A stretch of 64,000 nt of DNA from Escherichia coli (GCF_003018235.1 NZ_CP027437.1); one strand, 5' to 3'; shown: positions 6,586-28,139, numbered from the stretch's first letter. Numbers and translations are program-made. The notes: generated from the sequence alone by a model not told the origin.

Positions 6586-7401
6586 ATGACACCTTTAGTT
6601 AAGGATATCATCATGTCTTCAACACGTATGCCAGCATTGTTTTTAGGTCACGGTAGTCCGATGAACGTGCTGGAAGATAATTTGTATACCCGCAGCTGGC
6701 AGAAGTTGGGGATGACATTGCCACGCCCGCAAGCGATTGTGGTGGTTTCGGCTCACTGGTTTACCCGTGGAACAGGAGTGACCGCGATGGAGACGCCGCC
6801 CACGATTCATGACTTTGGTGGCTTCCCGCAGGCGCTGTACGACACGCATTATCCTGCTCCGGGTTCGCCTGCGCTGGCACAGCATCTGGTTGAGCTGTTA
6901 GCGCCGGTCCCGGTGACGCTGGATAAAGAAGCCTGGGGCTTTGACCACGGCTCGTGGGGCGTGCTGATTAAGATGTATCCTGACGCCGATATTCCGATGG
7001 TGCAGTTGAGTATCGACAGTAGCAAACCTGCCGCCTGGCATTTCGAAATGGGGCGCAAACTGGCAGCGCTGCGGGATGAAGGAATAATGTTGGTCGCCAG
7101 CGGTAACGTGGTGCATAACCTGCGTACGGTGAAGTGGCACGGTGATAGTTCACCGTATCCTTGGGCGATGTCGTTTAATGAGTATGTAGAAGCGAATCTG
7201 ACGTGGCAAGGGCCGGTAGAGCAGCATCCTCTGGTGAATTATCTCGACCATGAAGGTGGCGCGTTATCTAACCCAACGCCAGAGCACTATCTGCCGTTGT
7301 TGTATGTGTTAGGTGCGTGGGATGGGCAGGAGCCAATTACCATTCCGGTCGATGGTATAGAAATGGGCAGTTTAAGTATGTTGTCGGTGCAGATAGGTTA
7401 A
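6586..7401 (+). CDS. ygiD: YgiD, extradiol ring-cleavage (DOPA 4,5-dioxygenase-like) enzyme
   Basis: 271-aa ORF matching E. coli YgiD. Confidence 0.85.
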   Translation: MTPLVKDIIMSSTRMPALFLGHGSPMNVLEDNLYTRSWQKLGMTLPRPQAIVVVSAHWFTRGTGVTAMETPPTIHDFGGFPQALYDTHYPAPGSPALAQHLVELLAPVPVTLDKEAWGFDHGSWGVLIKMYPDADIPMVQLSIDSSKPAAWHFEMGRKLAALRDEGIMLVASGNVVHNLRTVKWHGDSSPYPWAMSFNEYVEANLTWQGPVEQHPLVNYLDHEGGALSNPTPEHYLPLLYVLGAWDGQEPITIPVDGIEMGSLSMLSVQIG

Positions 7402-7408
7402 TAAAAGA

Positions 7409-7440
7409 ACCCGAAGCCAGAACGACTGGCTTCGGGTGTT
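7409..7440. terminator. Hairpin terminator between convergent ygiD and dsbI
   Basis: Perfect 12-bp stem ACCCGAAGCCAG / CTGGCTTCGGGT. Confidence 0.5.
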
Positions 7441-7446
7441 GCTGAG

Positions 7447-8118
7447 TTAGCCTCTGATGATTTTAAGCGCCCATGCGCCACTCATAATGACCAGCAGCAC
7501 CAGACACATACCAAAAGCCAGCATACAAGCCTGAGCCATATTCATAAAATGCCATGGTGGTAGCAGATACCAGCCTTCAGATTGCTGATACATTTCCACA
7601 AACCACTGTTGCGTGCTGCTCAGTGTGACGCCATCAGGAACGATTGGTGCGTCATAGCCACAATCCCCGGTAGGCTTGAACCAATTTGGTGCCCACTGTG
7701 CCAGCGGCAGGTTAAAGGGAAAAGTTGGATCGGTAGAGCACCCCTGTACGCCAAACAGTGAATCGGGATCCGGATTATGTACTGCATGGTGGATATCGTT
7801 CAGTTTGAGCGAAAACTTCAGTCCCAAAATGCTGCCGTAAAATGCCATCACGCAGCCAATTAGCTTTAGGATGATGTTCTTTGGGTTGATCGCTGCAACC
7901 AATCCTCCAATAACCATCACAAACATGGCGTAGCGAATGTATACACATTGCTCACAGGGTGCCATGTAGAGATAGATCTGGAAAAAAGAGTGCGCCAGGA
8001 TAATTAACGCGCCCATCGCAATGGCCATTAACAACCACAAAAAACGTTGTTCTTGCCATCTTACCAGCGTGTCCACCGGTGAAGTGCGAAGGTCTTTCCA
8101 CATTCCCTTAATACCCAT
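7447..8118 (-). CDS. dsbI: DsbI, DsbB-like membrane thiol oxidase
   Basis: 223-aa multi-TM ORF with CxxC-type cysteines, last gene of the assT-dsbL-dsbI operon. Confidence 0.85.
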
Positions 8119-8132
8119 AGCCTGTTTCCCTG

Positions 8133-8801
8133 TTATTTGCTTGCTAACTCGCGGATAAGGTCTGCCATTGAGTCAATAGATTTAATACTCTTGGTGTAGA
8201 TCAGGTATTTACCATTGACGACATACGCCGGAACGCCCTGGATTTTTGCAACTTCATAAGAGGCTTTCCATTTTTCCAGCGTTTCCTGAACTGCAGGCTC
8301 TTTCAGCGCGGCTTCAAAATCGGCCTGACTCATACCTGCGGCGTCCAGTCCGGTTGTGATAAAGGCAGCCGGATCTTTACCATCAGACCAGCGTTCTTTT
8401 TTGTCATGATAAGCCGCGTAATAAGCAAACTTGGCTTTCTTAAACTGAGAGTTAGCATCAAATAATGAAATACCTGCTGCTTTATCTTTATTGATCAAGA
8501 CCGCAAAGACTTCGCTTGCTTGTTTGCCGTATTCACCTTTTGTTTCCAGATGGAATGGAGTAAAAGCAACGATATCTTTCACTTTTTCCGATACCGGACC
8601 GGTAACCGCTTTGTCGTACTTGTAACAGAACGGGCAGGCGTAGCTAAATACCTTAATCAGCGTTTTGTCGGCATTCGGAATAGGTTTTTCCAGAACCATG
8701 TAATCCGTGCCTTCGGTAAATGCAGAAGCGGTAAATGAAACAGCCAAAGCTGCGGTAAGCAGTATGGTTTTAAATAGTGATGAGATCCCTAATTTCGACA
8801 T
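8133..8801 (-). CDS. dsbL: DsbL, periplasmic DsbA-like thiol:disulfide oxidoreductase
   Basis: 222-aa ORF with signal peptide and CPFC active-site motif. Confidence 0.85.
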
Positions 8802-8818
8802 TTTTATTCCCTTCTTAA

Positions 8819-10615
8819 TTATTTGAACATCTGTTGTGGACGGACTAACAGTGCACGATAGTGAGTCTGATTGGGTTTATCTGACAGCACGTCGATTTCC
8901 ACTTTCACTTCTTTGGTTTTGTAATCGATTTCGTTCAACTTACCGACGGTTGGCTGCCCGACATCGAACAAATGAATAGAACCACCGAAGCCAAACATGG
9001 TGTTACGGTCGGCTTGATATTCAATGATGGAGGTAATCGGGCTATAGAAATCGTAGCCACGTTCTTTACCGTATTCCCACACTTGCTGAACGGTGCCTTT
9101 CTTCTCATCAATCTTATATTCCACAAAGCGGGAGTATTTCATGGTTGGTAAGGCAGGTTGTTCCAGATGACGCCCATCGCCATTATCAAAAATGGTGAGC
9201 GTTCCTTTGCTGGAAATCCAGGCGGTATGCTGGGTGTAGGTAAAGTCGAAGTCTGAGTTTTCGCACAGGCCATTTTCGTTACAGGTAATTGGCTTACCGT
9301 TAGCATCAACCGGTTTCAGCAGCTTGCTGGCCAGCGGTTTTTCCCAACCTTTAGAGGGCGCAAGGATCCATTTCACTTGCTTATCACGACCAATTTTCAC
9401 AACACCCTGGTGGCGAGAGGAGAGGATGATTGAGTCGTCTTTTGCGTCATAGGCGATTGAGTTAACGTGCGCCCAGTTACGACCTGGCCCTACACCCAGC
9501 GCGTCGCCGAACGGTGTATCTGGTTCCAGTTTTGCCTGTTGTCCTGCATGGGCAAGGTCAACGTTAACGCAAACTGCACCTGCATCCAGCGCGCCGAGCA
9601 GTGCATCGCGTTTCGGATCGAGGATCTTGGTCAGATCCCATACATCGACAACGCGACCAGATTTATCGACTTCGAGGATATGGTCACGAATGGTGGTGAC
9701 GTGTACGCCGTCATCGCGACGATAGTTACTCTTACCTACGCGCAACAGTACCGTGCCATTTGGCATCTCAATGGACTCATGAGTAGCGTCAGCAAATCCG
9801 CGCGGTAGTTTGTGATCTTCGAGCACCTGCCCCATCATGTCGAACTCGTACCAGTGCTGACCTTGTACAGCGGTAAAGGTGCCGCGTGGCGTTTCGCGGA
9901 TACCCATCAGATAACCACGCTTGTTGATATCGCGGTCACGACCATCGTAGAAAGTGTCTTGATCCAGCCACCAGCGGTATTCACCTTCGGTATCGACGAT
10001 GAAAGTAAAGGGCGCGATATCAAAAGGTAGTGCGCCGGTTGCCGGACCCGCATCAAGGATACCGGCATTTTTATCTTTCTCACCATGCCAGTGGAGATCG
10101 GAACCTTGGGCGGTAAAGGTGTGGGTATTAACCAGATAGAGGCGATCTTCAAAACCCGGTGCGACTTTAATAACTTTGGTCTGTTGTAAATCGGAGATAG
10201 AGCGGTTATCCATGTAATTATTGACGATGGCCGAAGTGTGCACCACATAATCATCTTTCATGACCTTGCCGTTTTCTTTCCACTCAACGGTCACTTTGTT
10301 AGCAAATTTCTGATAAAGACCAAAAATCGGTACACCATCGTAAGTTTTTAGTGATTCCTGACCCACGGGATAGCTGATTTCTACGCCTTTTTCGCCCTTC
10401 CCATGGACGGTAACTTTGACGTCAGAAATAACATGGCTATCTAAGTCAACCAAAGCGGTCAGTGGTGCATTGCCGTAGGGATCGACAATGACCGCACCCA
10501 GTTGCCCGGCAGGCGGTGCGGGTTTAAAACCTGCTGCCATCACCCCCGGTGCTGACAAACCCAGAGTTATCGCCACAGCTCCGGCTACCAGAGTTTTTCT
10601 ATATTTATCAAACAT
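8819..10615 (-). CDS. assT: AssT, periplasmic arylsulfate sulfotransferase
   Basis: 598-aa ORF with signal peptide; matches the ASST family; first gene of the three-gene operon. Confidence 0.9.
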   Translation of the reverse strand: MFDKYRKTLVAGAVAITLGLSAPGVMAAGFKPAPPAGQLGAVIVDPYGNAPLTALVDLDSHVISDVKVTVHGKGEKGVEISYPVGQESLKTYDGVPIFGLYQKFANKVTVEWKENGKVMKDDYVVHTSAIVNNYMDNRSISDLQQTKVIKVAPGFEDRLYLVNTHTFTAQGSDLHWHGEKDKNAGILDAGPATGALPFDIAPFTFIVDTEGEYRWWLDQDTFYDGRDRDINKRGYLMGIRETPRGTFTAVQGQHWYEFDMMGQVLEDHKLPRGFADATHESIEMPNGTVLLRVGKSNYRRDDGVHVTTIRDHILEVDKSGRVVDVWDLTKILDPKRDALLGALDAGAVCVNVDLAHAGQQAKLEPDTPFGDALGVGPGRNWAHVNSIAYDAKDDSIILSSRHQGVVKIGRDKQVKWILAPSKGWEKPLASKLLKPVDANGKPITCNENGLCENSDFDFTYTQHTAWISSKGTLTIFDNGDGRHLEQPALPTMKYSRFVEYKIDEKKGTVQQVWEYGKERGYDFYSPITSIIEYQADRNTMFGFGGSIHLFDVGQPTVGKLNEIDYKTKEVKVEIDVLSDKPNQTHYRALLVRPQQMFK

Positions 10616-17281: not shown

Positions 17282-19177
<1,896 letters not shown>

Positions 19178-19206
19178 TAATCCTCCCGCCAGAAGAATAA
19201 AACATA

Positions 19207-19238
19207 GCCCGGTATACAAGTGTATACCGGGCTTTTTT
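19207..19238. terminator. Rho-independent terminator after parE, shared with the convergent receptor gene
   Basis: Stem GCCCGGTATAC / GTATACCGGGC followed by TTTTTT. Confidence 0.7.
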
Positions 19239-19240
19239 GA

Positions 19241-21382
19241 TCAAAATTCCATTTTCACCGTGAATTGCACTTCACGCGGATCGCCAATCTGATTCCCCAG
19301 ATTATTTGTGGCGATGGAAGAGGTGTAATACGTTTTATCAAACAGGTTTTTGACGTTTAATTGCAGTGTGACCGGATACTGCAATTTCATTTTGTATGCG
19401 GCGAAGGCATCGGCAACGAAATAGCCTGGCAGATAATAGTCAGCCCCATTGGTTGCCGAACGACGGCTTACGCCATGTCCACCACCGCCAAACGTCAGTG
19501 TGTTATTGCCTGGCATGTTATGAATGTCATAGGTCAGGAATAGCGAACCGGTATGACGAGGAACATTCGGCAATGGTTTCCCTGCATAATCAGGATCCTC
19601 CAGAACCTTAGCATCGGTATAGCCGTAGCTGGCAATGATATTAATGTTTTCAGTTAATGCTCCCGCAAGGTCGACTTCTACCCCTCTTGAACGAACGCGG
19701 CCTGCCGTTTTGGCGATGGTTTCATCACCAATACTTTCGGTATACAACACGTTACGTTTATGGATATCAAACAGCGCAATATCTGCGGTTATACCATCGA
19801 ACAGCTCGAATTTTGCCCCGACTTCGTAAGCATTAGATGATTCCGGTGGAAGATCGCCAATGTAGCTGGCAATTGACGATTGCGGCATAAATGTTTGCGA
19901 ATAATTAGCAAATAAGGATACCGATGGCGTCAGTTTGTAGACTAACCCCAGTTTGGGCGTCCATTGTTCATCGCGGCTGTCAGTATTGACATTAAAAGGA
20001 CGGCCTTTACCCGCATACTGCGTGTAATACTGATAGCGGATCCCGGCGACGGCAATCCAGTTATCGGTCAGATAGAGTGCGTCCTGTGCATACGCTGAGT
20101 AGCTCTCCTGTTTGATCGTCTGATCACTGTCCGACGCCGAAACCGTTGTACATTTGCTGGTATTACCATAAACAGGGTTGTAGATATTGAAATCTTTAGC
20201 TTTTTTACAGCGAATCATATCTGTGCGCAGAAGATCATAATATTCATATGACACCCCACCCAGAATCTCATTATAGAACCCAGCAATATCAACATTCCCT
20301 TGCAGATCCGCACGAGTAGAATGCATACGCTGGGTAGATCCCTGAGTTGCATCAACACGCCGTGTCAGCGTTCCTGTCGTTGCATCATACGCGGTAACGC
20401 GAGCCTGATTGTCGCTGTATTTATCCTGGCTGTAGCTGTAATCAAAGCGCGCTGTCCACTGGCTATTGAGATGATATTCTGCGTTGAGTTGCGCCAGATC
20501 GGACTGACCATCTGTAATATTAAACGGTTCGTCAAAACGTATTTTTCGATCAACGTTTACGGGCTGTTTCGTCGTAAGGTCGAAAATCGTTCCACGATCG
20601 AACGGAGTTTTATAGTCCCGATGGGAATAGAGCATAGTTACTGTTGCATTATCACCAAACCAGGTGAGTGACGGGGCAATAAATGTACTGCGCTCTTTAC
20701 CGAAGTTTCGCCAGTAATCTTCATCCTGCACTTCCCCCGTCAGGCGGTATGCCAGCTGAGTGCCTTCAATGGGACCTGTGATATCAAGTTGCCCAGTGCC
20801 TCCGCCAAAACTGGAGGAGGTGGCTGAAACCGAACCATGGAATGTTTTTTCCGGGCGCTTGGTCACGACGTTAATCAGTCCACCAGGATCGAGAATGCCA
20901 TACAGCGTGGAGGCCGGACCTTTTAGCACTTCCACACGTTCTGTGGCGGCGTTGAAACTGCGAGGAAGTACAGTTCGCAGGCCGTTGGTCATGATGGAGC
21001 CATCCCGGTTAGCACCAAACCCACGACGTACAAAGGCGTCCTGAGTTCCGCCTAATGTATTGGTCTGTACCACGTTACTGACGTTATAAAGCGCTTCATC
21101 CAGCGTCGTCGCATTCTGATTTTCCAGAACCTGATCGCTAACCGTATTGACCACCTGCGGGATATCCAACATCGGCATATCGGTTAATGTCGCCGTGGAA
21201 GTGCTCAGAGGTTGATAACCATCGGTCGCCTCAGTTGCGGTATTTGCATCCGCTGTAACAGTGATTGTTTCGCCATCTTTGGTCGTTGCAGTGTCGGTTG
21301 CATGAATCATTGGTGCTGCAAAGAGCAGTGAAAAGAGCGCCCGACCTTTGATTCCTGAGAATGAAGGTGTGAACTTAGCCAT
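19241..21382 (-). CDS. TonB-dependent outer membrane receptor (siderophore/metal-chelate type)
   Basis: 713-aa ORF; signal peptide; TonB-box-like ETITVTA; plug plus beta-barrel; C-terminal aromatic residue (…KMEF). Confidence 0.9.
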   Translation of the reverse strand: MAKFTPSFSGIKGRALFSLLFAAPMIHATDTATTKDGETITVTADANTATEATDGYQPLSTSTATLTDMPMLDIPQVVNTVSDQVLENQNATTLDEALYNVSNVVQTNTLGGTQDAFVRRGFGANRDGSIMTNGLRTVLPRSFNAATERVEVLKGPASTLYGILDPGGLINVVTKRPEKTFHGSVSATSSSFGGGTGQLDITGPIEGTQLAYRLTGEVQDEDYWRNFGKERSTFIAPSLTWFGDNATVTMLYSHRDYKTPFDRGTIFDLTTKQPVNVDRKIRFDEPFNITDGQSDLAQLNAEYHLNSQWTARFDYSYSQDKYSDNQARVTAYDATTGTLTRRVDATQGSTQRMHSTRADLQGNVDIAGFYNEILGGVSYEYYDLLRTDMIRCKKAKDFNIYNPVYGNTSKCTTVSASDSDQTIKQESYSAYAQDALYLTDNWIAVAGIRYQYYTQYAGKGRPFNVNTDSRDEQWTPKLGLVYKLTPSVSLFANYSQTFMPQSSIASYIGDLPPESSNAYEVGAKFELFDGITADIALFDIHKRNVLYTESIGDETIAKTAGRVRSRGVEVDLAGALTENINIIASYGYTDAKVLEDPDYAGKPLPNVPRHTGSLFLTYDIHNMPGNNTLTFGGGGHGVSRRSATNGADYYLPGYFVADAFAAYKMKLQYPVTLQLNVKNLFDKTYYTSSIATNNLGNQIGDPREVQFTVKMEF

Positions 21383-21481
21383 TTAGTCTGTTATCCCAAA
21401 AACTCACGGATTGTCGTGAGTGAAAATTGTTTCTTGTTGCTCACTAAGCACTATCCGTTTGTTATTTCACCATCGGATATG

Positions 21482-21500
21482 TAATTGAGAATCATTCAAC
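21482..21500. promoter_or_regulatory. Fur-box-like site in the divergent receptor/ABC promoter region
   Basis: TAATTGAGAATCATTCAAC; core TGAGAATCATT matches Fur consensus TGATAATCATT at 10 of 11 positions. Confidence 0.4.
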
Positions 21501-21755
21501 CATGCGGTGATGTAGTAGTAAATGAGAAATAACAAAAAATTGCTACATGTGTTTTTATGAGAGGTTAATGCAATTCAATTGATGGTAATTTATTAATATT
21601 TAATGGTTTTATTTTTATCTTTAAAAATATTTCACCTGTTATTTACCTTGTTTTTGTATGGCTTTTAACTTCTTGACTACTACATTTTGTGGCGTCAAAC
21701 TCTCAAAGGAGAATGAGTTTTATTTTTGTTTGTCTTTGATTAAGTTGGCGTACAC

Positions 21756-22565
21756 GTGGCACATAACGCAAAAGGGCAGGGGCTGATCCTCGACAATGTT
21801 TCTGCCGGGTATCACACGAAAATCATTGTTGATGGCGTTTCTTTCTCCGTTCCCACAGAAAAAATGACCGTTCTGGTTGGGGCAAACGGCTGTGGAAAGT
21901 CGACGTTGCTCAGCACCATTGCACGTATCTTGCAACCTATGGGCGGCTCGATATTGCTGGATGGTAAAGCGATTCACGAGCAACCAACGAAAGCGTTATC
22001 CCGTAGACTTGGGATCTTGCCGCAGTCGCCATTATTGCCGGAGGGCTTAACCGTTTATGAACTGGTGTCGCGTGGGCGTTTTCCCTGGCAGAATTTCATT
22101 CGTCAATGGAGCGACGCCGACGAGCAGGCGGTAGAAGAGGCCCTGAAATTAACCGGTACGCAGGAGTTTGCACATTTACCTGTTGAAAAACTTTCTGGTG
22201 GGCAGCGCCAGCGTTGCTGGATTGCGATGGTGTTGGCGCAAAAGACGCCTTATATCCTGCTGGATGAACCCACAACCTGGCTTGATTTACGTTATCAGGT
22301 TGAAATTCTTGAGTTATTACATGATTTAACGCGTCATCACGGGCGTACAGTCGTCGTGGTGTTGCATGATCTGAATTTTGCCGTCAATTATGGTGATACG
22401 TTGATATTTTTACGCCAGGGGAAAGTGGTGCGTGTGTTGAATGAGGGGGAGCATTGCACGCCTGAGCTGGTAAAAGCTGTCTTTGACGTTGATGTTCACG
22501 CATCAATAAATCCTCTGACGGGAAAGCCGTTCTTCATGCCGTTTCGTGGTGTAGAAAAAGTATGA
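21756..22565 (+). CDS. ABC transporter ATP-binding protein (FepC/FecE-like)
   Basis: Walker A GANGCGKST, signature LSGGQRQR, Walker B ILLDEPT, H-loop; GTG start. Confidence 0.85.
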   Translation: MAHNAKGQGLILDNVSAGYHTKIIVDGVSFSVPTEKMTVLVGANGCGKSTLLSTIARILQPMGGSILLDGKAIHEQPTKALSRRLGILPQSPLLPEGLTVYELVSRGRFPWQNFIRQWSDADEQAVEEALKLTGTQEFAHLPVEKLSGGQRQRCWIAMVLAQKTPYILLDEPTTWLDLRYQVEILELLHDLTRHHGRTVVVVLHDLNFAVNYGDTLIFLRQGKVVRVLNEGEHCTPELVKAVFDVDVHASINPLTGKPFFMPFRGVEKV

Positions 22566-23545
22566 TGCGCACAGGGCTGGTTACTGTAATTTTCCTCGCC
22601 TTACTGCTGGTGGGATGCGTGGTATATCCAGGGATTGGTGCCCGATTTATTGCACCACAAACGGTGTTGCAGGCATTTCTTCATTTTGAACCGCAAAACT
22701 TCGATCACAACGTAATTGTAAGACTCCGTTTGCCGCGTTTAGCGGCAGCATTGCTTACCGGTGCTTCTCTTGGAGTTGCTGGTGCTTTGTTGCAGGCTGT
22801 CATTCGTAACCCATTGGGGGAGCCACATATTTTAGGCTTAAATGCCGGAGCCGCTCTTGCTGTCGTTGCTGCCAGTGCGCTTGGGCTGGCCTTTCCGGTT
22901 GGACGCCCACTGCTGGCATCTACGGGCGGCGCGTTATTGTTCCTGTTGATATTGCTGCTTTCCTCCGCAGGGCGTTCAGGGTTAACGCCAATGAAAGTTA
23001 CTTTATGCGGCGTGGCGCTATCGGCGTTCGTGTCCTCAATAACGGCTGCAATCCTGATTCTTGACGAACAAACACTGCTGGCGATGCGGACATGGCTAGC
23101 AGGTGATTTAGCGGGGCAGGATTGGGCGACGCTGGGTACGTCCGCCTGGTTTTCTCTGGGGGGGGTTGTGTTAGCCATTTACCTTGCGCCCTCTCTTAAC
23201 ATGTTGGCACTGGGTGATCGCATGGCGCAGGGGCTGGGCGTCTCGGTACTCCGCACGCGAACATTCACTCTGCTTGCGATCGCGTTGCTCTGTGGCGCAG
23301 CCGTATCGATTGCTGGCCCCATTGGTTTTGTCGGTCTGCTAGTACCGCAGATTGTCAGGCGTCTGGTATCTGCGGATCTGCGCGTTCTGCTCCCTCTTTC
23401 AGCTTGTGTCGGTGCCTTACTGCTATTACTGGCAGATATTATTGCCCGGACGCTTTTCACGCCCCATGAGCTGGCGACCGGTGTCATGACGGCGTTAGTT
23501 GGTGCGCCCGTTTTTGTCATTATGGCGACGAGGATGTTCAAATGA
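22562..23545 (+). CDS. ABC transporter permease, FecCD family
   Basis: 327-aa multi-TM ORF; start overlaps the ATPase stop. Confidence 0.85.
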   Translation: MMRTGLVTVIFLALLLVGCVVYPGIGARFIAPQTVLQAFLHFEPQNFDHNVIVRLRLPRLAAALLTGASLGVAGALLQAVIRNPLGEPHILGLNAGAALAVVAASALGLAFPVGRPLLASTGGALLFLLILLLSSAGRSGLTPMKVTLCGVALSAFVSSITAAILILDEQTLLAMRTWLAGDLAGQDWATLGTSAWFSLGGVVLAIYLAPSLNMLALGDRMAQGLGVSVLRTRTFTLLAIALLCGAAVSIAGPIGFVGLLVPQIVRRLVSADLRVLLPLSACVGALLLLLADIIARTLFTPHELATGVMTALVGAPVFVIMATRMFK

Positions 23546-24591
23546 GTCGGATAATGAACGTCGGGCTACGTCCACTACGTGTTGGTAAGTTTTCGACACT
23601 GGTACGCCCTAAAAATCTGGTGTTGCTTGGTGGGCTGTTTCTGTTTGCGGTTGGAATACTGATATTCGGTCTGATGCATGGTTCTTTTTCTGTCCCAGCA
23701 TCGGAAGTAGGACGAGCGTTGTTTGCTCCAGAAAACGTAAGCACAGACGCACGTTATATTGTGCAGGATATTCGCTTGCCGAGAGTCATCATGGCATTGC
23801 TATGCGGAGCCATGTTAGGTATGGCGGGGGCCGCGATGCAATCCATTGCGCGTAACGGCCTTGCCGATCCTGGTTTAATCGGCGTCAAAGAAGGATGTAG
23901 CGTGGCGGTGCTGTGGCTGATTTTCCAGTTTCCAATGCTGGGAATGTTCTGGCGTCCAGTGGCTGGTCTTGCTGGTGGCTTGTTGGTGGCTTTAATCGTG
24001 ATTTTTTGTGCGCGCGATATTTCCCGCCCGCGATTTGTTCTGATTGGTATTGGTGTTTCCTGGTTTTTCGCCGCCGGTATCGGTGTATTTATGACCACTG
24101 CAGATGTTCGAGATGTACAAACTGCATTGATGTGGTTATCGGGAAGCCTGCATGCAGCTAACTGGATGTTAGTCGGTATTTCAGCCTGTTGGATGTTGCC
24201 AGCCGCTCTTTTATTGCTGTTCACCGCCAGGACGGCAGATATCGCTCTGCTTGGTCATCAGGTTGCAACCGGGTTAGGGGTGAATAGTTCTCGTCTGGCG
24301 TTGTTACGTGTCGCCGCACCAATAATCCTGACCGCCGTCTGCGTTTCGTGTGTTGGTAACATCGGTTTTGTCGGATTGATAGCACCCCATATATCACGTT
24401 TTATTCTACGTGGCGGGCAGACGACATTACTGCTGGGGAGCGCCGTATCGGGGGCGTTGTTAGTCATCCTGGCGGATAGCATTGGTCGTTTGGCTTTTTT
24501 GCCTTTGCAACTGCCTGCCGGAATCATTATTTCATTGATTGGTGGACCATTCTTTTTGCTACTGCTCTGGCAGCGCAGGAACAGTTTTTAA
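23542..24591 (+). CDS. ABC transporter permease, FecCD family (second)
   Basis: 349-aa multi-TM ORF; start overlaps the previous stop. Confidence 0.85.
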   Translation: MSRIMNVGLRPLRVGKFSTLVRPKNLVLLGGLFLFAVGILIFGLMHGSFSVPASEVGRALFAPENVSTDARYIVQDIRLPRVIMALLCGAMLGMAGAAMQSIARNGLADPGLIGVKEGCSVAVLWLIFQFPMLGMFWRPVAGLAGGLLVALIVIFCARDISRPRFVLIGIGVSWFFAAGIGVFMTTADVRDVQTALMWLSGSLHAANWMLVGISACWMLPAALLLLFTARTADIALLGHQVATGLGVNSSRLALLRVAAPIILTAVCVSCVGNIGFVGLIAPHISRFILRGGQTTLLLGSAVSGALLVILADSIGRLAFLPLQLPAGIIISLIGGPFFLLLLWQRRNSF

Positions 24592-24601
24592 TGGGAGTTA
24601 T

Positions 24602-25549
24602 ATGCGTTTATTTTTTTCTCTGCTGATACTGTTGTCATTCTTTGCCCGAGCGACAGAACCTGTTCAGGTCTTTACTGATGATTTAGGGCGCAAAGTCACT
24701 GTTCCTGCTCATCCAAAGAGAATTGTCTCTTTACACGATCTTGATATCACTATTCCTCTGATTGAGCTCGGTGTACCTCCTGTCGCCAGCCACGGGCGAA
24801 CCCGGCCTGACGGTAGCCATTTCATTCGATCAGGCGCGTTATTGACAGGTGTCGACTTTGATAATTCATCGATCGCTTTTATTGGCACCGCTGATATTGA
24901 TATTGAAGCGATTGTGGCGGCAAAGCCTGACCTGATCATCACAGAACCGACCCGTAATACGCCCATTGAACAACTGGAAAAAATTGCGCCCACGGTGAGC
25001 ATTGATCATCTCAAAGGAGGCGCGCCAGAAATCTACCGCAAGCTGGCAGAACTTACAGGAACGCAGTCGCAGCTGGCGATACTTGAACGCCGCTATCAGG
25101 CACAAATCAATGCGCTGAAGGCGACGCTGGACAGCCAAAAAATAACGGTATCGGTGATTCAGGCAAATCAGGGAAAAATTAATGTGATGCATAGCTATCA
25201 TTCGCTGGGGCGGGTATTACGCGATGCTGGTTTTCGCTTTCCGCCGCTGATTGAGAGCATTCCTGAAGGTGGGCGAATGGGTGTGAGCGCAGAGCGTTTA
25301 CCTGAACTGGATGCCGATTTTGTTTTTGCAACCTGGCGCGGTGACACCGGTGGTAAACCTCAGGATGAGCTGGCAGCAATGGAAAAAGTCATGCCGGGAT
25401 GGTGTCAGTTTCTGACGGCCTGTCGTTCCGGGCGCTATGTGCTGATTTCTCGTGAAGAGGCGATTTCTAACTCCTTTGCATCTCTGGGGCTGATGGCTGC
25501 GCAGATACAATCACAAATTGCGGGACGACCTCTACCGGAGGCTAAATGA
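24602..25549 (+). CDS. Periplasmic substrate-binding protein (siderophore/cobalamin-type)
   Basis: 315 aa from MRLFFSLLILLSFFARA with signal peptide; GGAG RBS 4 nt upstream of ATG 24602. Confidence 0.8.
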   Translation: MRLFFSLLILLSFFARATEPVQVFTDDLGRKVTVPAHPKRIVSLHDLDITIPLIELGVPPVASHGRTRPDGSHFIRSGALLTGVDFDNSSIAFIGTADIDIEAIVAAKPDLIITEPTRNTPIEQLEKIAPTVSIDHLKGGAPEIYRKLAELTGTQSQLAILERRYQAQINALKATLDSQKITVSVIQANQGKINVMHSYHSLGRVLRDAGFRFPPLIESIPEGGRMGVSAERLPELDADFVFATWRGDTGGKPQDELAAMEKVMPGWCQFLTACRSGRYVLISREEAISNSFASLGLMAAQIQSQIAGRPLPEAK

Positions 25550-26433
25550 TCCAGAAAGACAAAACGCGGGTTGATATTTATGGTGAGTGTTTTCGCACTC
25601 GCGCGAGTCAGTTAACGCCTGGGTTAAGAGCTGTCGCAAGCTACATTAATGAGCATCGTGAAGTGGTACTCGAGCAAACGGCGATGGAAATTGCGGCCAC
25701 GTTGAACACTTCCGATGCCACAGTTATCAGGGCTATACAGGCTCTGGGGTTTGCCGGGCTGCGTGATCTGAAACGCACACTGGAACAGTGGCTTGGTCCA
25801 GCCCTTAGTTCCAGCGAAAAGATGTCTACGACGGTGAGTAACTTGACGTGCGATGTTAACACCGCAATCGACTTTGTTCTTGAAGGGCATTTGTATACTT
25901 GTAATGTCCTGTCAGAGCCTGAAAACCGCCACGCGCTTGAGCAAGCTGTAGCGTTGTTGGTGCAGGCACGGCAAGTCGCTATTTTTGGCATTGGCGCTTC
26001 GGGTATCCTGGCGGACTATACCGCACGACTATTCAACCGCATAGGTTTGCCTGCCACGGCACTAAACCGTACGGGTATTGGCCTTGCCGAGCAACTGATC
26101 GCGCTTCAACGTGGCGATGTTCTGATCATGATGGCGCAAAAATCTGCGCACCGGGAAGGGCTGACAACGCTTCGTGAGGCGAGGCGGCTGGGGATCCCTG
26201 TTATTTTGCTGACAAACGCGCTGGATTCACGTTTTAGCAAAGACGCCAGTATCGTGATTCATGTTCCGCGCGGGGATGAAAAGGGGAAAACGCCACTACA
26301 TGGTACGGTATTGTTGTGTCTGGAAATGATTGTCTGGTCGGTAGCTTCCGCAGTGCCGCAGCGTGCGGTTAAAACCATTAAGCGAATTAACGATTTCCAT
26401 CGAGGACTGAAAACGGGAAGAAAGAATGGCTAA
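25546..26433 (+). CDS. RpiR/MurR-family transcriptional regulator (N-terminal HTH, C-terminal SIS phosphosugar-binding domain)
   Basis: 295-aa ORF; HTH region then SIS-like VAIFGIGASG...; ATGA overlap with the binding-protein stop. Confidence 0.8.
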   Translation: MIQKDKTRVDIYGECFRTRASQLTPGLRAVASYINEHREVVLEQTAMEIAATLNTSDATVIRAIQALGFAGLRDLKRTLEQWLGPALSSSEKMSTTVSNLTCDVNTAIDFVLEGHLYTCNVLSEPENRHALEQAVALLVQARQVAIFGIGASGILADYTARLFNRIGLPATALNRTGIGLAEQLIALQRGDVLIMMAQKSAHREGLTTLREARRLGIPVILLTNALDSRFSKDASIVIHVPRGDEKGKTPLHGTVLLCLEMIVWSVASAVPQRAVKTIKRINDFHRGLKTGRKNG

Positions 26434-26441
26434 TCTGGGCT

Positions 26442-26470
26442 GAGACCGGTAGCAGCACCGGCCTCTTTTC
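26442..26470 (+). terminator. Terminator after the island operon
   Basis: Stem GAGACCGGT / ACCGGCCTC (one mismatch) followed by TTTT. Confidence 0.45.
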
Positions 26471-26477
26471 AGGAATG

Positions 26478-26792
26478 TTAAATCCCCGGTTGCAGAATAC
26501 GGATATTCATCTCCAGCACGTCGCCTTTTACGGCTTCGCTGTACGCCTTCATGTGCGGGGTTTGCAGATGCGCTTCAAGATGCGCGATGCTTTCCCACTG
26601 CTCAATCATCACGATAGAATCCGGTGCCATAGACTGGAAACTCACGCCAGCAGCGCAATCCACCATTGGCGCATAGCCGTGGCAACCTTCTTCTTTCAGT
26701 ACGGTTGGAACGATTTTAGCAAACTGATCCAATACTGCCTGACGGTGATGTTGACCAGGACGAGTACGGATTTCTGCGATTACGGTAAGCAT
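26478..26792 (-). CDS. ygiN: YgiN, quinol monooxygenase
   Basis: 104-aa ORF matching YgiN. Confidence 0.9.
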   Translation of the reverse strand: MLTVIAEIRTRPGQHHRQAVLDQFAKIVPTVLKEEGCHGYAPMVDCAAGVSFQSMAPDSIVMIEQWESIAHLEAHLQTPHMKAYSEAVKGDVLEMNIRILQPGI

Positions 26793-27404: not shown

Positions 27405-27463
27405 TTTTTAACCTCAAGGTGAGACGTTTGTCGACTATAGTACGTCACAGAGCGGTACGGTGA

Positions 27464-27496
27464 AATTAGCAAAATGTGCAAAGTCTTTTGCTAATT
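27464..27496. promoter_or_regulatory. Perfect 11-bp inverted repeat upstream of mdaB, candidate operator
   Basis: AATTAGCAAAA-(11 bp)-TTTTGCTAATT, then direct repeat TAGCAAAAGTC; 60-90 bp upstream of the mdaB start. Confidence 0.3.
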
Positions 27497-27761
27497 TAGC
27501 AAAAGTCTGATCTTGCTCTGACTCACCGATGCAGGATAAATATTTTCTGAAAATGACAATACTGATAGCAATTTCTCATCATTCCAACTAGCACAGGGTT
27601 AATTTACAACGTTGGTGTGGACTTTCTGCGAGTTGATAATTGTGGTGTTGAATAACTAAAAATGAAAATATCAGCGTGTTACGCAGATTATTTTAAATAG
27701 ATTTACTGGAGGGTATCGAAAACCAGATCTCCGACTGGACTTTTTTAGAGAGTGCTAACAT

Positions 27762-28091
27762 ATGTTAAAGCATAAAATTCAAACAATATTTGAAGCTCTG
27801 TTATATATAATGCTTACTTATTGGTTAATAGATGCTTTTTTTGCTTTCAATAAGTATGACTGGATGCTTGAGTCGGGAGACAATATTTACAGTATACCTT
27901 CCGTTTCAGGCGAAGATCGTATATTGCAAGCAATGATTGCAGCATTTTTTCTTTTGACGCCACTTATTATTCTTATCTTAAGAAAACTCTTTATGCGGGA
28001 AATGTTCGAGTTTTGGCTATATGTATTCACGCTCGTTATTTGTTTGGTTTGTGGTTGGTGGCTTTTTTGGGGTCGGTTTATATTTTGCTAA
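27762..28091 (+). CDS. ygiZ: YgiZ, inner membrane protein
   Basis: 109-aa ORF with three predicted TM helices in the position of K-12 ygiZ. Confidence 0.7.
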   Translation: MLKHKIQTIFEALLYIMLTYWLIDAFFAFNKYDWMLESGDNIYSIPSVSGEDRILQAMIAAFFLLTPLIILILRKLFMREMFEFWLYVFTLVICLVCGWWLFWGRFIFC

Positions 28092-28139
28092 TAGTAAAAT
28101 CTATGAGAGTCGTTTTAACGGCTCTCATAGACAGAGAAG

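Follow-up and report, generated by a model that had tools for sequence, protein, structure and literature searches.

The fit system of E. coli was reportedly first described by Ouyang & Isaacson in 2006. Later accounts include that of Ouyang & Isaacson 2008 (Open Microbiol J 2:94) and the crystal structures of its binding protein FitE (3BE5/3BE6; Shi et al. 2009). In the literature, fit raises the iron supply and is repressed by iron; repression by Fur has been reported (PMC2593036, PMC7157518), and c3771–c3775 of CFT073 are direct members of the Fur regulon. Fur and FitR repress independently, each acting on both divergent promoters, and FitR binds fitA–fitB intergenic DNA in EMSA, with derepression of only 2–5 fold in a fitR mutant (PMC2593036). 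The entry GR22, spanning ygiN to parE, is listed as a fit operon of 7193 bp (Table 4 of PMC12928451, a 2026 paper).

Here, we analyzed a 64,000-nucleotide stretch of E. coli DNA (hereafter, the window) in which six genes lie between parE and ygiN. As a whole, this segment is very probably both a self-contained chromosomal fit cassette, for taking up a ferric chelate produced by another organism, and an old polymorphism at the parE–ygiN site. Added to the published picture are the architecture of the control region, a candidate FitR operator, Fur-like boxes, a fitA-leader hairpin with covarying pairs, the SIS motif of FitR, and the occupancy of the site in other genera.

Identity, layout and distribution of the fit locus

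Positions 19241–26433 of the window are the already described E. coli fit locus (fitA, fitBCDE, and fitR). A preliminary description had tentatively suggested this name, and primers, the FitE structure, and the position and length given in PMC12928451 prove it right. All 17 fit primers of PMC2593036 map to the correct genes in the correct order and orientation (e.g., the fitA qPCR primers at 20562–20638 and the fitB primers at 21913–21999, with those for fitC, fitD, fitE, and fitR likewise in the expected genes), and none of the three control primers (fepA, gst, and polA) maps on the locus. Mature FitE matches PDB 3BE5 at 294 of 297 residues (E = 2e-194), and the segment measures 7193 bp, equal to the published operon. 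Gene number, order, orientation, chromosomal site, and length are thus all as in the published fit system, with allelic differences only (0–3 mismatches per primer and three FitE residues).

ORFs, family matches, and the RefSeq annotation of identical loci define a cassette in which fitA is divergent from fitB-C-D-E-R (Table 1), in agreement with the ORFs first proposed: a 713-aa TonB-dependent receptor on the minus strand and an ATPase, two FecCD-type permeases, a binding protein, and an RpiR-family regulator on the plus strand. Of the overlapping start and stop codons also claimed at that stage, those of fitB/fitC and fitE/fitR (ATGA), and possibly fitC/fitD, are present, whereas fitD and fitE are separated by a 10-nt gap. 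If fitD instead begins at an in-frame ATG at 23542, its start and the fitC stop codon overlap. For fitE, the mechanical ORF start (TTG, 24539) was rejected in favor of the ATG at 24602, which has an RBS (GGGAG) and is followed by a signal peptide; the 3BE5/3BE6 crystal construct begins directly past this predicted peptide.

Table 1 Features of the fit locus and its flanks (window coordinates; a dot marks features without an assigned strand)
Feature	Position	Strand	Basis or remark
parE, left core flank	17285–19177	+	TIGR01055, 1250 bits; RefSeq annotation of syntenic loci
Terminator-like hairpin, bidirectional, common to parE and fitA	19206–19233	.	12-bp stem, both strands
fitA, TonB-dependent outer-membrane receptor, 713 aa	19241–21382	-	ORF, family profiles, primers
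Second fitA-leader hairpin, CTCACG-N6-CGTGAG	21404–21421	-	Read by eye; directly upstream of fitA RBS
fitA-leader stem-loop, 6-bp, TATCCG...CGGATA	21452–21479	-	Conserved; 5' end of predicted leader
Fur-box-like site 1	21481–21499	.	12/19 vs Fur consensus; within invariant 21-mer
Candidate FitR operator O1: TGTAGTAGTAAA (21511–21522) with partner GCTACA (21542–21547)	21511–21547	.	
Candidate FitR operator O2 and predicted PfitB -35: TTGACTACTACAT	21673–21685	+	Inverted O1 copy, 150 nt away
Fur-box-like site 2: GAGAATGAGTTTTATTTTT	21709–21727	.	13/19 match; conserved block; ~+1 to +20 of PfitB
fitB, ABC ATPase, GTG start	21756–22565	+	ORF, family profiles, RefSeq, primers
fitC, FecCD-type permease	22562–23545	+	ORF, family profiles, RefSeq, primers
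fitD, FecCD-type permease	23554–24591	+	RefSeq start; ORF, family profiles, primers
fitE, periplasmic binding protein, 315 aa	24602–25549	+	3BE5/3BE6 identity; primers
fitR, MurR/RpiR-family repressor (HTH_6 + SIS)	25546–26433	+	Profiles, primers, PMC2593036
Terminator-like hairpin after fitR	26446–26461	+	Right indel boundary just beyond
ygiN, right core flank	26478–26792	-	RefSeq annotation of syntenic loci

As the preliminary description had stated, parE and ygiN are adjacent and convergent in K-12, which lacks these genes (the MG1655 spacer is 47 bp), and a BL21 derivative has the same arrangement, also with 47 bp. The extra ~7.2 kb noted there corresponds to a polymorphic segment of ~7.24 kb relative to K-12, extending from ~19234, just past the shared terminator hairpin (homologous, by local alignment, to the parE terminator of the K-12 empty site), to ~26468, just before a shared CAGGA that adjoins the ygiN stop codon. 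At each junction, the sequence is homologous to that of the empty site. The cassette is carried by 1870 of 5426 complete E. coli genomes (34%; 97–99.5% identity), including O157:H7, and is not confined to some ExPEC.

The term 'accessory island' is apt insofar as K-12 lacks the genes, but not in the sense of a recent insertion. It is unlikely that the segment is a pathogenicity or genomic island of recent origin, inserted in pathogenic lineages by a mobile element. In favor of such an origin, strains such as K-12 and B, among many others, lack fit, fitA is tied in the literature to B2/ExPEC/AIEC strains (PMC5907654, PMC9409007), and the chromosomes of Salmonella, Klebsiella/Raoultella, Kosakonia, Serratia, and Sodalis carry the same cassette elsewhere, so that it moves between genomes. 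The locus carries no integrase or transposase, has no tRNA, and is not flanked by direct repeats, and the GC check that had been proposed (49.3% in the segment vs 50.7% in the window) showed no compositional anomaly; these results speak against a mobile island. Within the species, the segment has diverged about as much as the parE, ygiN, and mdaB flanks, and the identical site is filled in Enterobacter spp., Silvania confinis, and Escherichia sp. MOD1-EC7003 (a cryptic Escherichia clade). Presence or absence of the segment is a long-standing polymorphism of the parE–ygiN site, and because Enterobacter and Silvania have this site occupied, its absence from K-12 may reflect a loss there and not a gain in the present strain.

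The fitB GTG start aligns with an ATG in other genera, and E. coli fitB has no obvious Shine-Dalgarno sequence, a segment that other genera have; importer expression may therefore be low. Together with the loss of the cassette from two thirds of strains and a literature that, where accessible, quotes no growth phenotype, this could indicate a decaying or silent remnant without current function in E. coli. We regard this as highly improbable, given that none of the six ORFs is disrupted here or in the 1870 carrier genomes, that regulated expression has been measured (PMC2593036), that a fitD Tn-seq mutant of ExPEC F11 is described as less fit in the blood niche, that FitA has been seen as an outer-membrane protein in AIEC (PMC9409007), and that strong conservation across genera extends to coding and control sequences alike.

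Receptor, importer and possible ligand

FitA scores 374 bits against TIGR01783 (TonB-dependent siderophore receptor; cut-off 223.5) and has a signal peptide and a TonB box (ETITVTA), with Phe as its last residue. Its only domains are PF07715 (Plug) and PF00593 (barrel). The domain search found no STN signaling domain in FitA, and alignments to FoxA and CntO start at their residue ~131, opposite FitA residue 34. With no sigma factor gene of an ECF sigma/anti-sigma pair among the cassette ORFs either, a FecA-type signaling receptor was ruled out. NCBIfam similarities indicate that a type II ABC importer set is encoded together with a class III (cluster A) binding protein, and importer orthologues in other genera carry PF01032, PF00005, and PF01497. 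These family assignments (siderophore-type receptor, FecCD-type ABC importer) bear out the chelate-uptake architecture recognized earlier. Judging from family membership, FitA would be a TonB-energized, gated outer-membrane channel that admits a Fe(III) complex, FitE would bind this complex in the periplasm, and FitC/FitD with the FitB ATPase would form a type II (BtuCD/FecCDE-like) ABC importer that carries it into the cytoplasm. The E. coli cassette contains no biosynthesis, export, or iron-release genes, which points to a piracy system. Likewise, no biosynthesis genes lie beside the cassette in seven neighborhoods with called genes and Pfam matches (Kosakonia, Serratia, a Serratia-like assembly labeled Pseudomonas, Raoultella, K. 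electrica, Salmonella, and Sodalis).

No component reaches the cut-off of an NCBIfam equivalog (Fec, Fhu, Fep, Btu, and heme systems, and the FoxA and Fiu receptors; score/cut-off for FhuA 231/803, FecE 284/375, FecC 238/396, and FepB 52/205). Orthology to a transporter of known substrate was rejected because all of these matches fall far under the cut-offs, in line with the earlier statement that the substrate cannot be read from the sequence; the literature still calls it unknown (PMC5907654, PMC9409007). Among equivalog-type models, FitA scores best with those of the FhuA, FhuE, and ferrioxamine receptors; at the family level, FitB is closest to FecE and FitC to FecC (with FhuB/BtuC-type similarities as well). 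The nearest solved relatives of FitE, besides itself, are YfiY and FhuD. The partner binding protein of cassette variant A resembles the 'ferrichrome/ferrioxamine B periplasmic transporter' family, and FitA is as close to enantio-pyochelin and pseudopaline receptors as to hydroxamate receptors. The ligand class that would best fit these relationships is a hydroxamate-type or mixed xenosiderophore, an assignment to which we give slightly less than even weight. The lean toward hydroxamates is weak because the matches to characterized receptors and binding proteins are distant (155–240 bits, far under the equivalog cut-offs).

A non-siderophore substrate (e.g., heme, cobalamin, another metal chelate [metallophore], or uncomplexed metal ions) appears improbable. 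The permeases and ATPase score nearly equally against BtuC and heme/corrinoid ATPases and against Fec/Fhu, FitA is as near to CntO, a receptor for metal-pseudopaline, as it is to FhuA, and PMC12928451 cites fit in connection with Fe2+, Co2+, and Cd2+ uptake. However, FitA lies above the siderophore-receptor cut-off and fails the heme (96 vs 317) and B12 (44 vs 600) receptor models, fit belongs to the direct, iron-repressed Fur regulon, and the relatives of FitE are siderophore-binding proteins. In addition, one cassette variant has an inserted protein of the PepSY_TM family, to which the ferric-siderophore reductase FoxB belongs.

Control region and FitR

The architecture of the fitA–fitB control region, whose blocks were first aligned in 7 genera, is invariant across ~55 Enterobacterales species. 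The 21-mer ATGTAATTGAGAATCATTCAA (21479–21499) is invariant in the 7 genera and exact in 55 fit-type loci, and the predicted PfitA -10 (TTGAAT, minus strand, 21494–21499) overlaps Fur-like site 1 within it. At exactly +32 from the 21-mer, TGTAGTAGT is found in 55 of 56 loci, and TGTAGTAGTAAA of O1 includes the predicted PfitA -35 (TTTACT, minus strand). The O1/O2 inverted repeat (I4) is 92% complementary, the O2 element is invariant in 51 loci, and ACTACTACA occurs just twice within the window. The predicted PfitB -10 is CAAACT (21696–21701). Neither of these proposed -10 elements is a good one in E. coli, and a generic promoter scan returned no sigma-70 site in the fitA–fitB intergenic region. 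Fur-box matches of 12–13/19 are commonplace on their own, with ~100 such sites per 64 kb.

The O1 motif accompanies fitR homologues even beside different receptor and ABC genes, and lies within the 347-bp fragment shifted by FitR (PMC2593036). Based on conservation and co-occurrence, TGTAGTAGTAAA / TTGACTACTACA is a candidate FitR operator; the invariant ACTACTACA could instead be part of the promoter or the site of a different factor. If TGTAGTAGTAAA / TTGACTACTACA is the operator, FitR would occupy these elements over both -35 hexamers. Fur would sit on the conserved boxes at -10/+1 of both promoters. In the fitA leader, RNAalifold analysis of 25 diverse sequences showed compensatory double changes in four of the six pairs of the stem-loop, with 2 of 150 cells broken; at the place of the second hairpin, other genera have a hairpin of differing sequence (alignment, by eye).

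FitR contains PF01418 (HTH_6) and PF01380 (SIS), as determined on 98%-identical cluster representatives, and its PDB relatives are 8K3B and 4IVN. Canonical SIS domains bind phosphosugars through a G-x-G-x-S loop and an S-x-S-G-x-S/T loop. The first loop is present in FitR (GIGASG), whereas the second reads MAQKSAHRE instead of ISQSGRSKD/VSSSGSTKE and is invariant among orthologues, giving the conserved non-canonical motif MAQKSAHREG. The SIS domain, with this altered pocket, may bind a small molecule linked to the substrate and thereby release DNA, in which case full fit expression would require both low iron and ligand. More speculatively, and with rather more doubt than confidence, FitR may be a distinct, siderophore-responsive cytoplasmic RpiR/SIS repressor whose conserved, non-phosphosugar A-Q-K-S-A-H pocket senses the imported chelator or its product, and which, through its own invariant operator, controls interchangeable xenosiderophore receptors and importers in plant- and gut-associated Enterobacterales.

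Comparison with Fhu, Fec and RpiR-family regulators

Like Fhu (FhuA/FhuE with FhuCDB), fit pairs a receptor from the same broad TonB-dependent branch with a type II ABC importer and its class III binding protein, is Fur-repressed, and lacks biosynthesis genes, as expected for the piracy of foreign siderophores. The TonB box of FhuA (DTITVTA) is near that of FitA. However, the similarity is distant (231 bits vs 803 for the FhuA model; ~55 bits for FhuD-type structures), fit has two separate permeases in place of the fused FhuB, and its dedicated RpiR/SIS repressor has no counterpart in Fhu.

Fec (FecA with FecBCDE and FecIR) is likewise an E. coli iron importer with a regulator of its own besides Fur, and it provides the top family-level matches of FitB and FitC. 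In contrast to Fec, FitA has no N-terminal STN domain, fit has no ECF sigma/anti-sigma pair and is regulated by a cytoplasmic repressor rather than by surface signaling, and FitE matches FecB weakly (36 bits).

FitR resembles MurR, HexR, and NanR of V. vulnificus (4IVN) in its HTH_6 and SIS domains, its action as a repressor, and its control of divergent promoters. Unlike the MurR/RpiR phosphosugar repressors, it targets an iron-chelate importer instead of a sugar pathway, and its second phosphate-binding motif is replaced by the conserved A-Q-K-S-A-H. If the proposed siderophore response is true, FitR would stand apart from known siderophore sensors of the AraC, ECF-sigma, and two-component types.

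Identity and gene content of the parE-ygiN locus

The segment between parE and ygiN (19241-26433) is the fit locus, which already had a name and a partial characterisation from 2006 on; finding it adds nothing new in itself. The preliminary description had tentatively suggested fit, and primers, the FitE structure match, position and length all agree with that name. All of the published fit primers (17/17; Ouyang and Isaacson 2008, PMC2593036) map in the window to the correct genes, in the correct order and orientation, with 0-3 mismatches, and the control primers fepA, gst and polA had no match there. FitE is identical at 294 of 297 positions to PDB 3BE5/3BE6, entries listed as the FitE structure of Shi et al. 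2009, and a 2026 comparative study (PMC12928451) reports "GR 22, ygiN..parE, fit operon, 7193 bp", exactly the length of the segment. In PMC2593036, fitA is the receptor gene, fitB encodes the ATPase, fitC and fitD the permeases, fitE the binding protein, and fitR a regulator with HTH and sugar-isomerase domains.

An ORF map of the window from 16 to 29 kb reproduced the gene layout read earlier from the sequence (see table). As stated in the preliminary description, parE and ygiN adjoin in K-12: they are convergent in MG1655, with 47 bp between them, and likewise in a BL21 derivative. The overlapping start and stop codons described for the operon hold in part, as ATGA at fitB/fitC and fitE/fitR and possibly at fitC/fitD. 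The start of fitE was placed at ATG 24602, replacing the mechanical TTG 24539, because a ribosome-binding site and signal peptide occur there and the crystallised construct begins directly after. In E. coli and Salmonella, fitB starts at GTG (window 21730-21758) and lacks a ~40-nt segment with a GGAG Shine-Dalgarno sequence that precedes the fitB ATG in Kosakonia, Serratia, Raoultella, Klebsiella and Sodalis. The importer operon may be poorly translated in E. coli.

Features of the fit locus, its flanks and its control region
Feature	Coordinates	Strand	Description
parE			Left flank; TIGR01055, 1250 bits
fitA	19241-21382	-	TonB-dependent siderophore receptor, 713 aa; TIGR01783, 374 bits vs cut-off 223.5 (NCBIfam)
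fitA-fitB gap			373 bp; AT-rich, 31% GC
Second hairpin	21404-21421		CTCACG-N6-CGTGAG
Leader stem-loop	21452-21479	-	6-bp stem (minus-strand sense)
Block 1	21479-21499		ATGTAATTGAGAATCATTCAA; Fur-box-like (12/19); overlaps predicted PfitA -10
Block 2	21511-21522		TGTAGTAGTAAA; contains predicted PfitA -35
Candidate operator element	21511-21519		TGTAGTAGT
Block 3	21673-21685		TTGACTACTACAT; contains predicted PfitB -35
Candidate operator element	21676-21684		ACTACTACA
Block 4	21709-21727		GAGAATGAGTTTTATTTTT; Fur-box-like (13/19); about +1 of predicted PfitB
fitB		+	ABC ATPase; best NCBIfam match FecE
fitC, fitD		+	Two FecCD-type permeases (NCBIfam)
fitE		+	Siderophore-type binding protein (NCBIfam)
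fitR		+	MurR/RpiR-type regulator (NCBIfam); last of five plus-strand ORFs, ends at 26433
ygiN, mdaB			Right flank; names from RefSeq annotation of syntenic loci

Distribution and history of the site

Megablast found the full fit segment in 1870 of 5426 complete E. coli genomes, including O157:H7, and the remaining genomes have an empty parE-ygiN junction. A mobile island was considered and dropped for want of its hallmarks: no integrase, transposase, tRNA or direct repeat was found at the segment. Its GC content is 49.3% (window, 50.7%), and fit genes diverge between E. coli lineages by ~1-3%, the same as parE, ygiN and mdaB. MAFFT alignment of the junctions was uninformative, and local pairwise alignment showed that the K-12 spacer retains the parE terminator hairpin and CAGGA beside the ygiN stop; because the occupied site has the same two features at its ends, the polymorphic segment spans ~19234-26468.

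Scanning the control-region 21-mer (block 1) against one genome per species (298 Gb) returned 56 loci, of which 55 are fit-type; almost all come from Enterobacterales. The cassette occupies the parE-ygiN site in Enterobacter (L024, L034, L060), Silvania (L021) and Escherichia sp. MOD1-EC7003 (L046), and lies elsewhere in Salmonella, Klebsiella/Raoultella, Kosakonia, Serratia and Sodalis. Shared junctions, normal GC content, flank-like divergence and use of the same site in other genera together indicate an old presence/absence polymorphism, and the K-12 lineage is no less likely to have lost the segment than this strain is to have gained it.

Several loci deserve separate mention. In strain MS 69-1 (NZ_CP146675.1), the segment matched in two pieces over ~8.4 kb instead of 7.7 kb, suggesting an insertion inside the locus, perhaps an IS element. 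The one exact 21-mer without companion motif or fit genes (7518-7538 of L020, a Sphingobacteriales MAG contig) is probably a chance match, since ~0.3 are expected in 298 Gb. In an assembly labelled Pseudomonas cerasi (GCA_977069525.1), the genes flanking fit match those of Serratia proteamaculans (L004 vs L005), and the label may reflect misassignment or contamination. The interval between mdaB and qseC, 1 kb away (window 27405-28139), is also polymorphic: the window and K-12 carry ygiZ (27762-28091, in a stretch with a low GC content of 34%), O157:H7 has only 110 bp (L001 11405-11515), and in strain AR_0017 ygiZ is preceded by an additional Hcp gene (type VI secretion) and a hypothetical one (L010 11405-13232).

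Transport machinery and possible substrate class

In FitA, a signal peptide and a TonB box (ETITVTA) accompany the Plug and barrel domains, and the last residue is Phe; no STN signalling domain is present, and FecA-like surface signalling was dropped on that ground. FitE is a class III binding protein, and FitCD with FitB constitute a predicted BtuCD/FecCDE-type importer. Siderophore biosynthesis genes were absent from seven neighbourhoods with called genes and Pfam hits, on which basis we read the cassette as a piracy system; nor did these seven, or two variant loci inspected in detail, contain biosynthetic or catabolic neighbours hinting at the ligand. No fit component reached the NCBIfam equivalog cut-offs for Fhu, Fec, Fep, Btu or heme systems, and a heme or B12 system was dropped because its subfamily scores fell below cut-off.

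The nearest solved relatives of FitA are receptors for enantio-pyochelin, pseudopaline/ferrioxamine and ferrichrome (all ~155-170 bits), and those of FitE, itself aside, are YfiY and FhuD. Variant loci in Pantoea (L014, L022, L025, L038, L040, L054), some Serratia (L017, L055) and Erwinia typographi (L050) encode FitR homologues (64-69% identical) and carry the same Fur-box/TGTAGTAGT control block, with a different, FhuA/FoxA-like receptor (36% identical to FitA) beside a binding protein similar to the ferrichrome/ferrioxamine B periplasmic transporter family; no ABC membrane genes were found at these loci. Taken together, these relatives and variant pairs lean weakly towards a hydroxamate-type or mixed xenosiderophore. 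We found no report of the substrate in the literature on the fit system, and in K. pneumoniae ST258 it was called unknown and not enterobactin (PMC5907654).

Two further cassette forms were observed. Rosenbergiella (L019, L041, L052) has a complete, strongly diverged cassette. In L004, fitE and fitR are separated by three additional genes (7007-10004), one for a PepSY_TM membrane protein and two for PstS-like binding proteins. The ferric-siderophore reductase FoxB belongs to the PepSY_TM family.

The fit system is one of few E. coli TonB-dependent iron importers without a known ligand, and extraintestinal and adherent-invasive strains are enriched for it. AIEC/B2 strains correlate with fitA (PMC9409007), and a fitD transposon mutant of ExPEC F11 had lower fitness in blood in one Tn-seq study.

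Control region and the FitR pocket

Iron represses fit, Fur and FitR independently repress fitA and fitB, and FitR shifts a 347-bp intergenic fragment (PMC2593036). Published direct Fur targets include CFT073 c3771-c3775, and iron limitation induces fitA in K. pneumoniae ST258 (PMC5907654). The block architecture of this region is new in this analysis. Aligned across seven genera, the fitA-fitB intergenic region (56% mean column identity) contains four invariant blocks. No sigma-70 consensus emerged from a generic promoter scan of it, and PfitA and PfitB were placed by cross-genus conservation instead. Fur-box score alone does not discriminate, as the window holds 100 sites of at least 12/19.

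Blocks 2 and 3 are inverted copies 150 nt apart, and ACTACTACA is found within the 64 kb only in these two. The TGTAGTAGT element lies exactly 32 nt from the 21-mer start in 55 of the 56 loci (one genome per species), and TTGACTACTACA is invariant in 51. The motif accompanies fitR even where receptor and ABC genes have been replaced, which makes it the leading candidate for the FitR operator. In E. coli and in the variant loci it has a (G/A)CTACA partner 19 nt downstream, suggestive of a palindromic site.

The leader stem-loop, which immediately follows the predicted fitA -10/Fur box, is preserved between genera through compensatory changes (ATCCG/CGGAT, ACCCG/CGGGT, GCTCG/CGAGC, ATCTG/CAGAT, GCCTG/CAGGC), with four of six pairs covarying and 2 of 150 cells broken. 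It is probably the 5'-terminal stem-loop of the fitA mRNA. The second hairpin lies just upstream of the fitA ribosome-binding site, and other genera have a hairpin of different sequence in the same place (intergenic alignment, by eye). Operator candidate, Fur-like boxes and leader hairpin are concrete sites for mutation.

FitR offers a route to the ligand through its atypical SIS pocket, in that compounds releasing it from DNA could reveal the substrate. Its motifs point to a pocket that departs from the usual SIS pattern yet is conserved, and FitR may respond to an effector other than a phosphosugar. The first SIS loop (GIGASG) is retained, and the second phosphate-binding motif, invariant in 13 orthologues from more than 10 genera, reads MAQKSAHRE, whereas the corresponding motif is ISQSGRSKD in 8K3B and VSSSGSTKE in NanR (4IVN).
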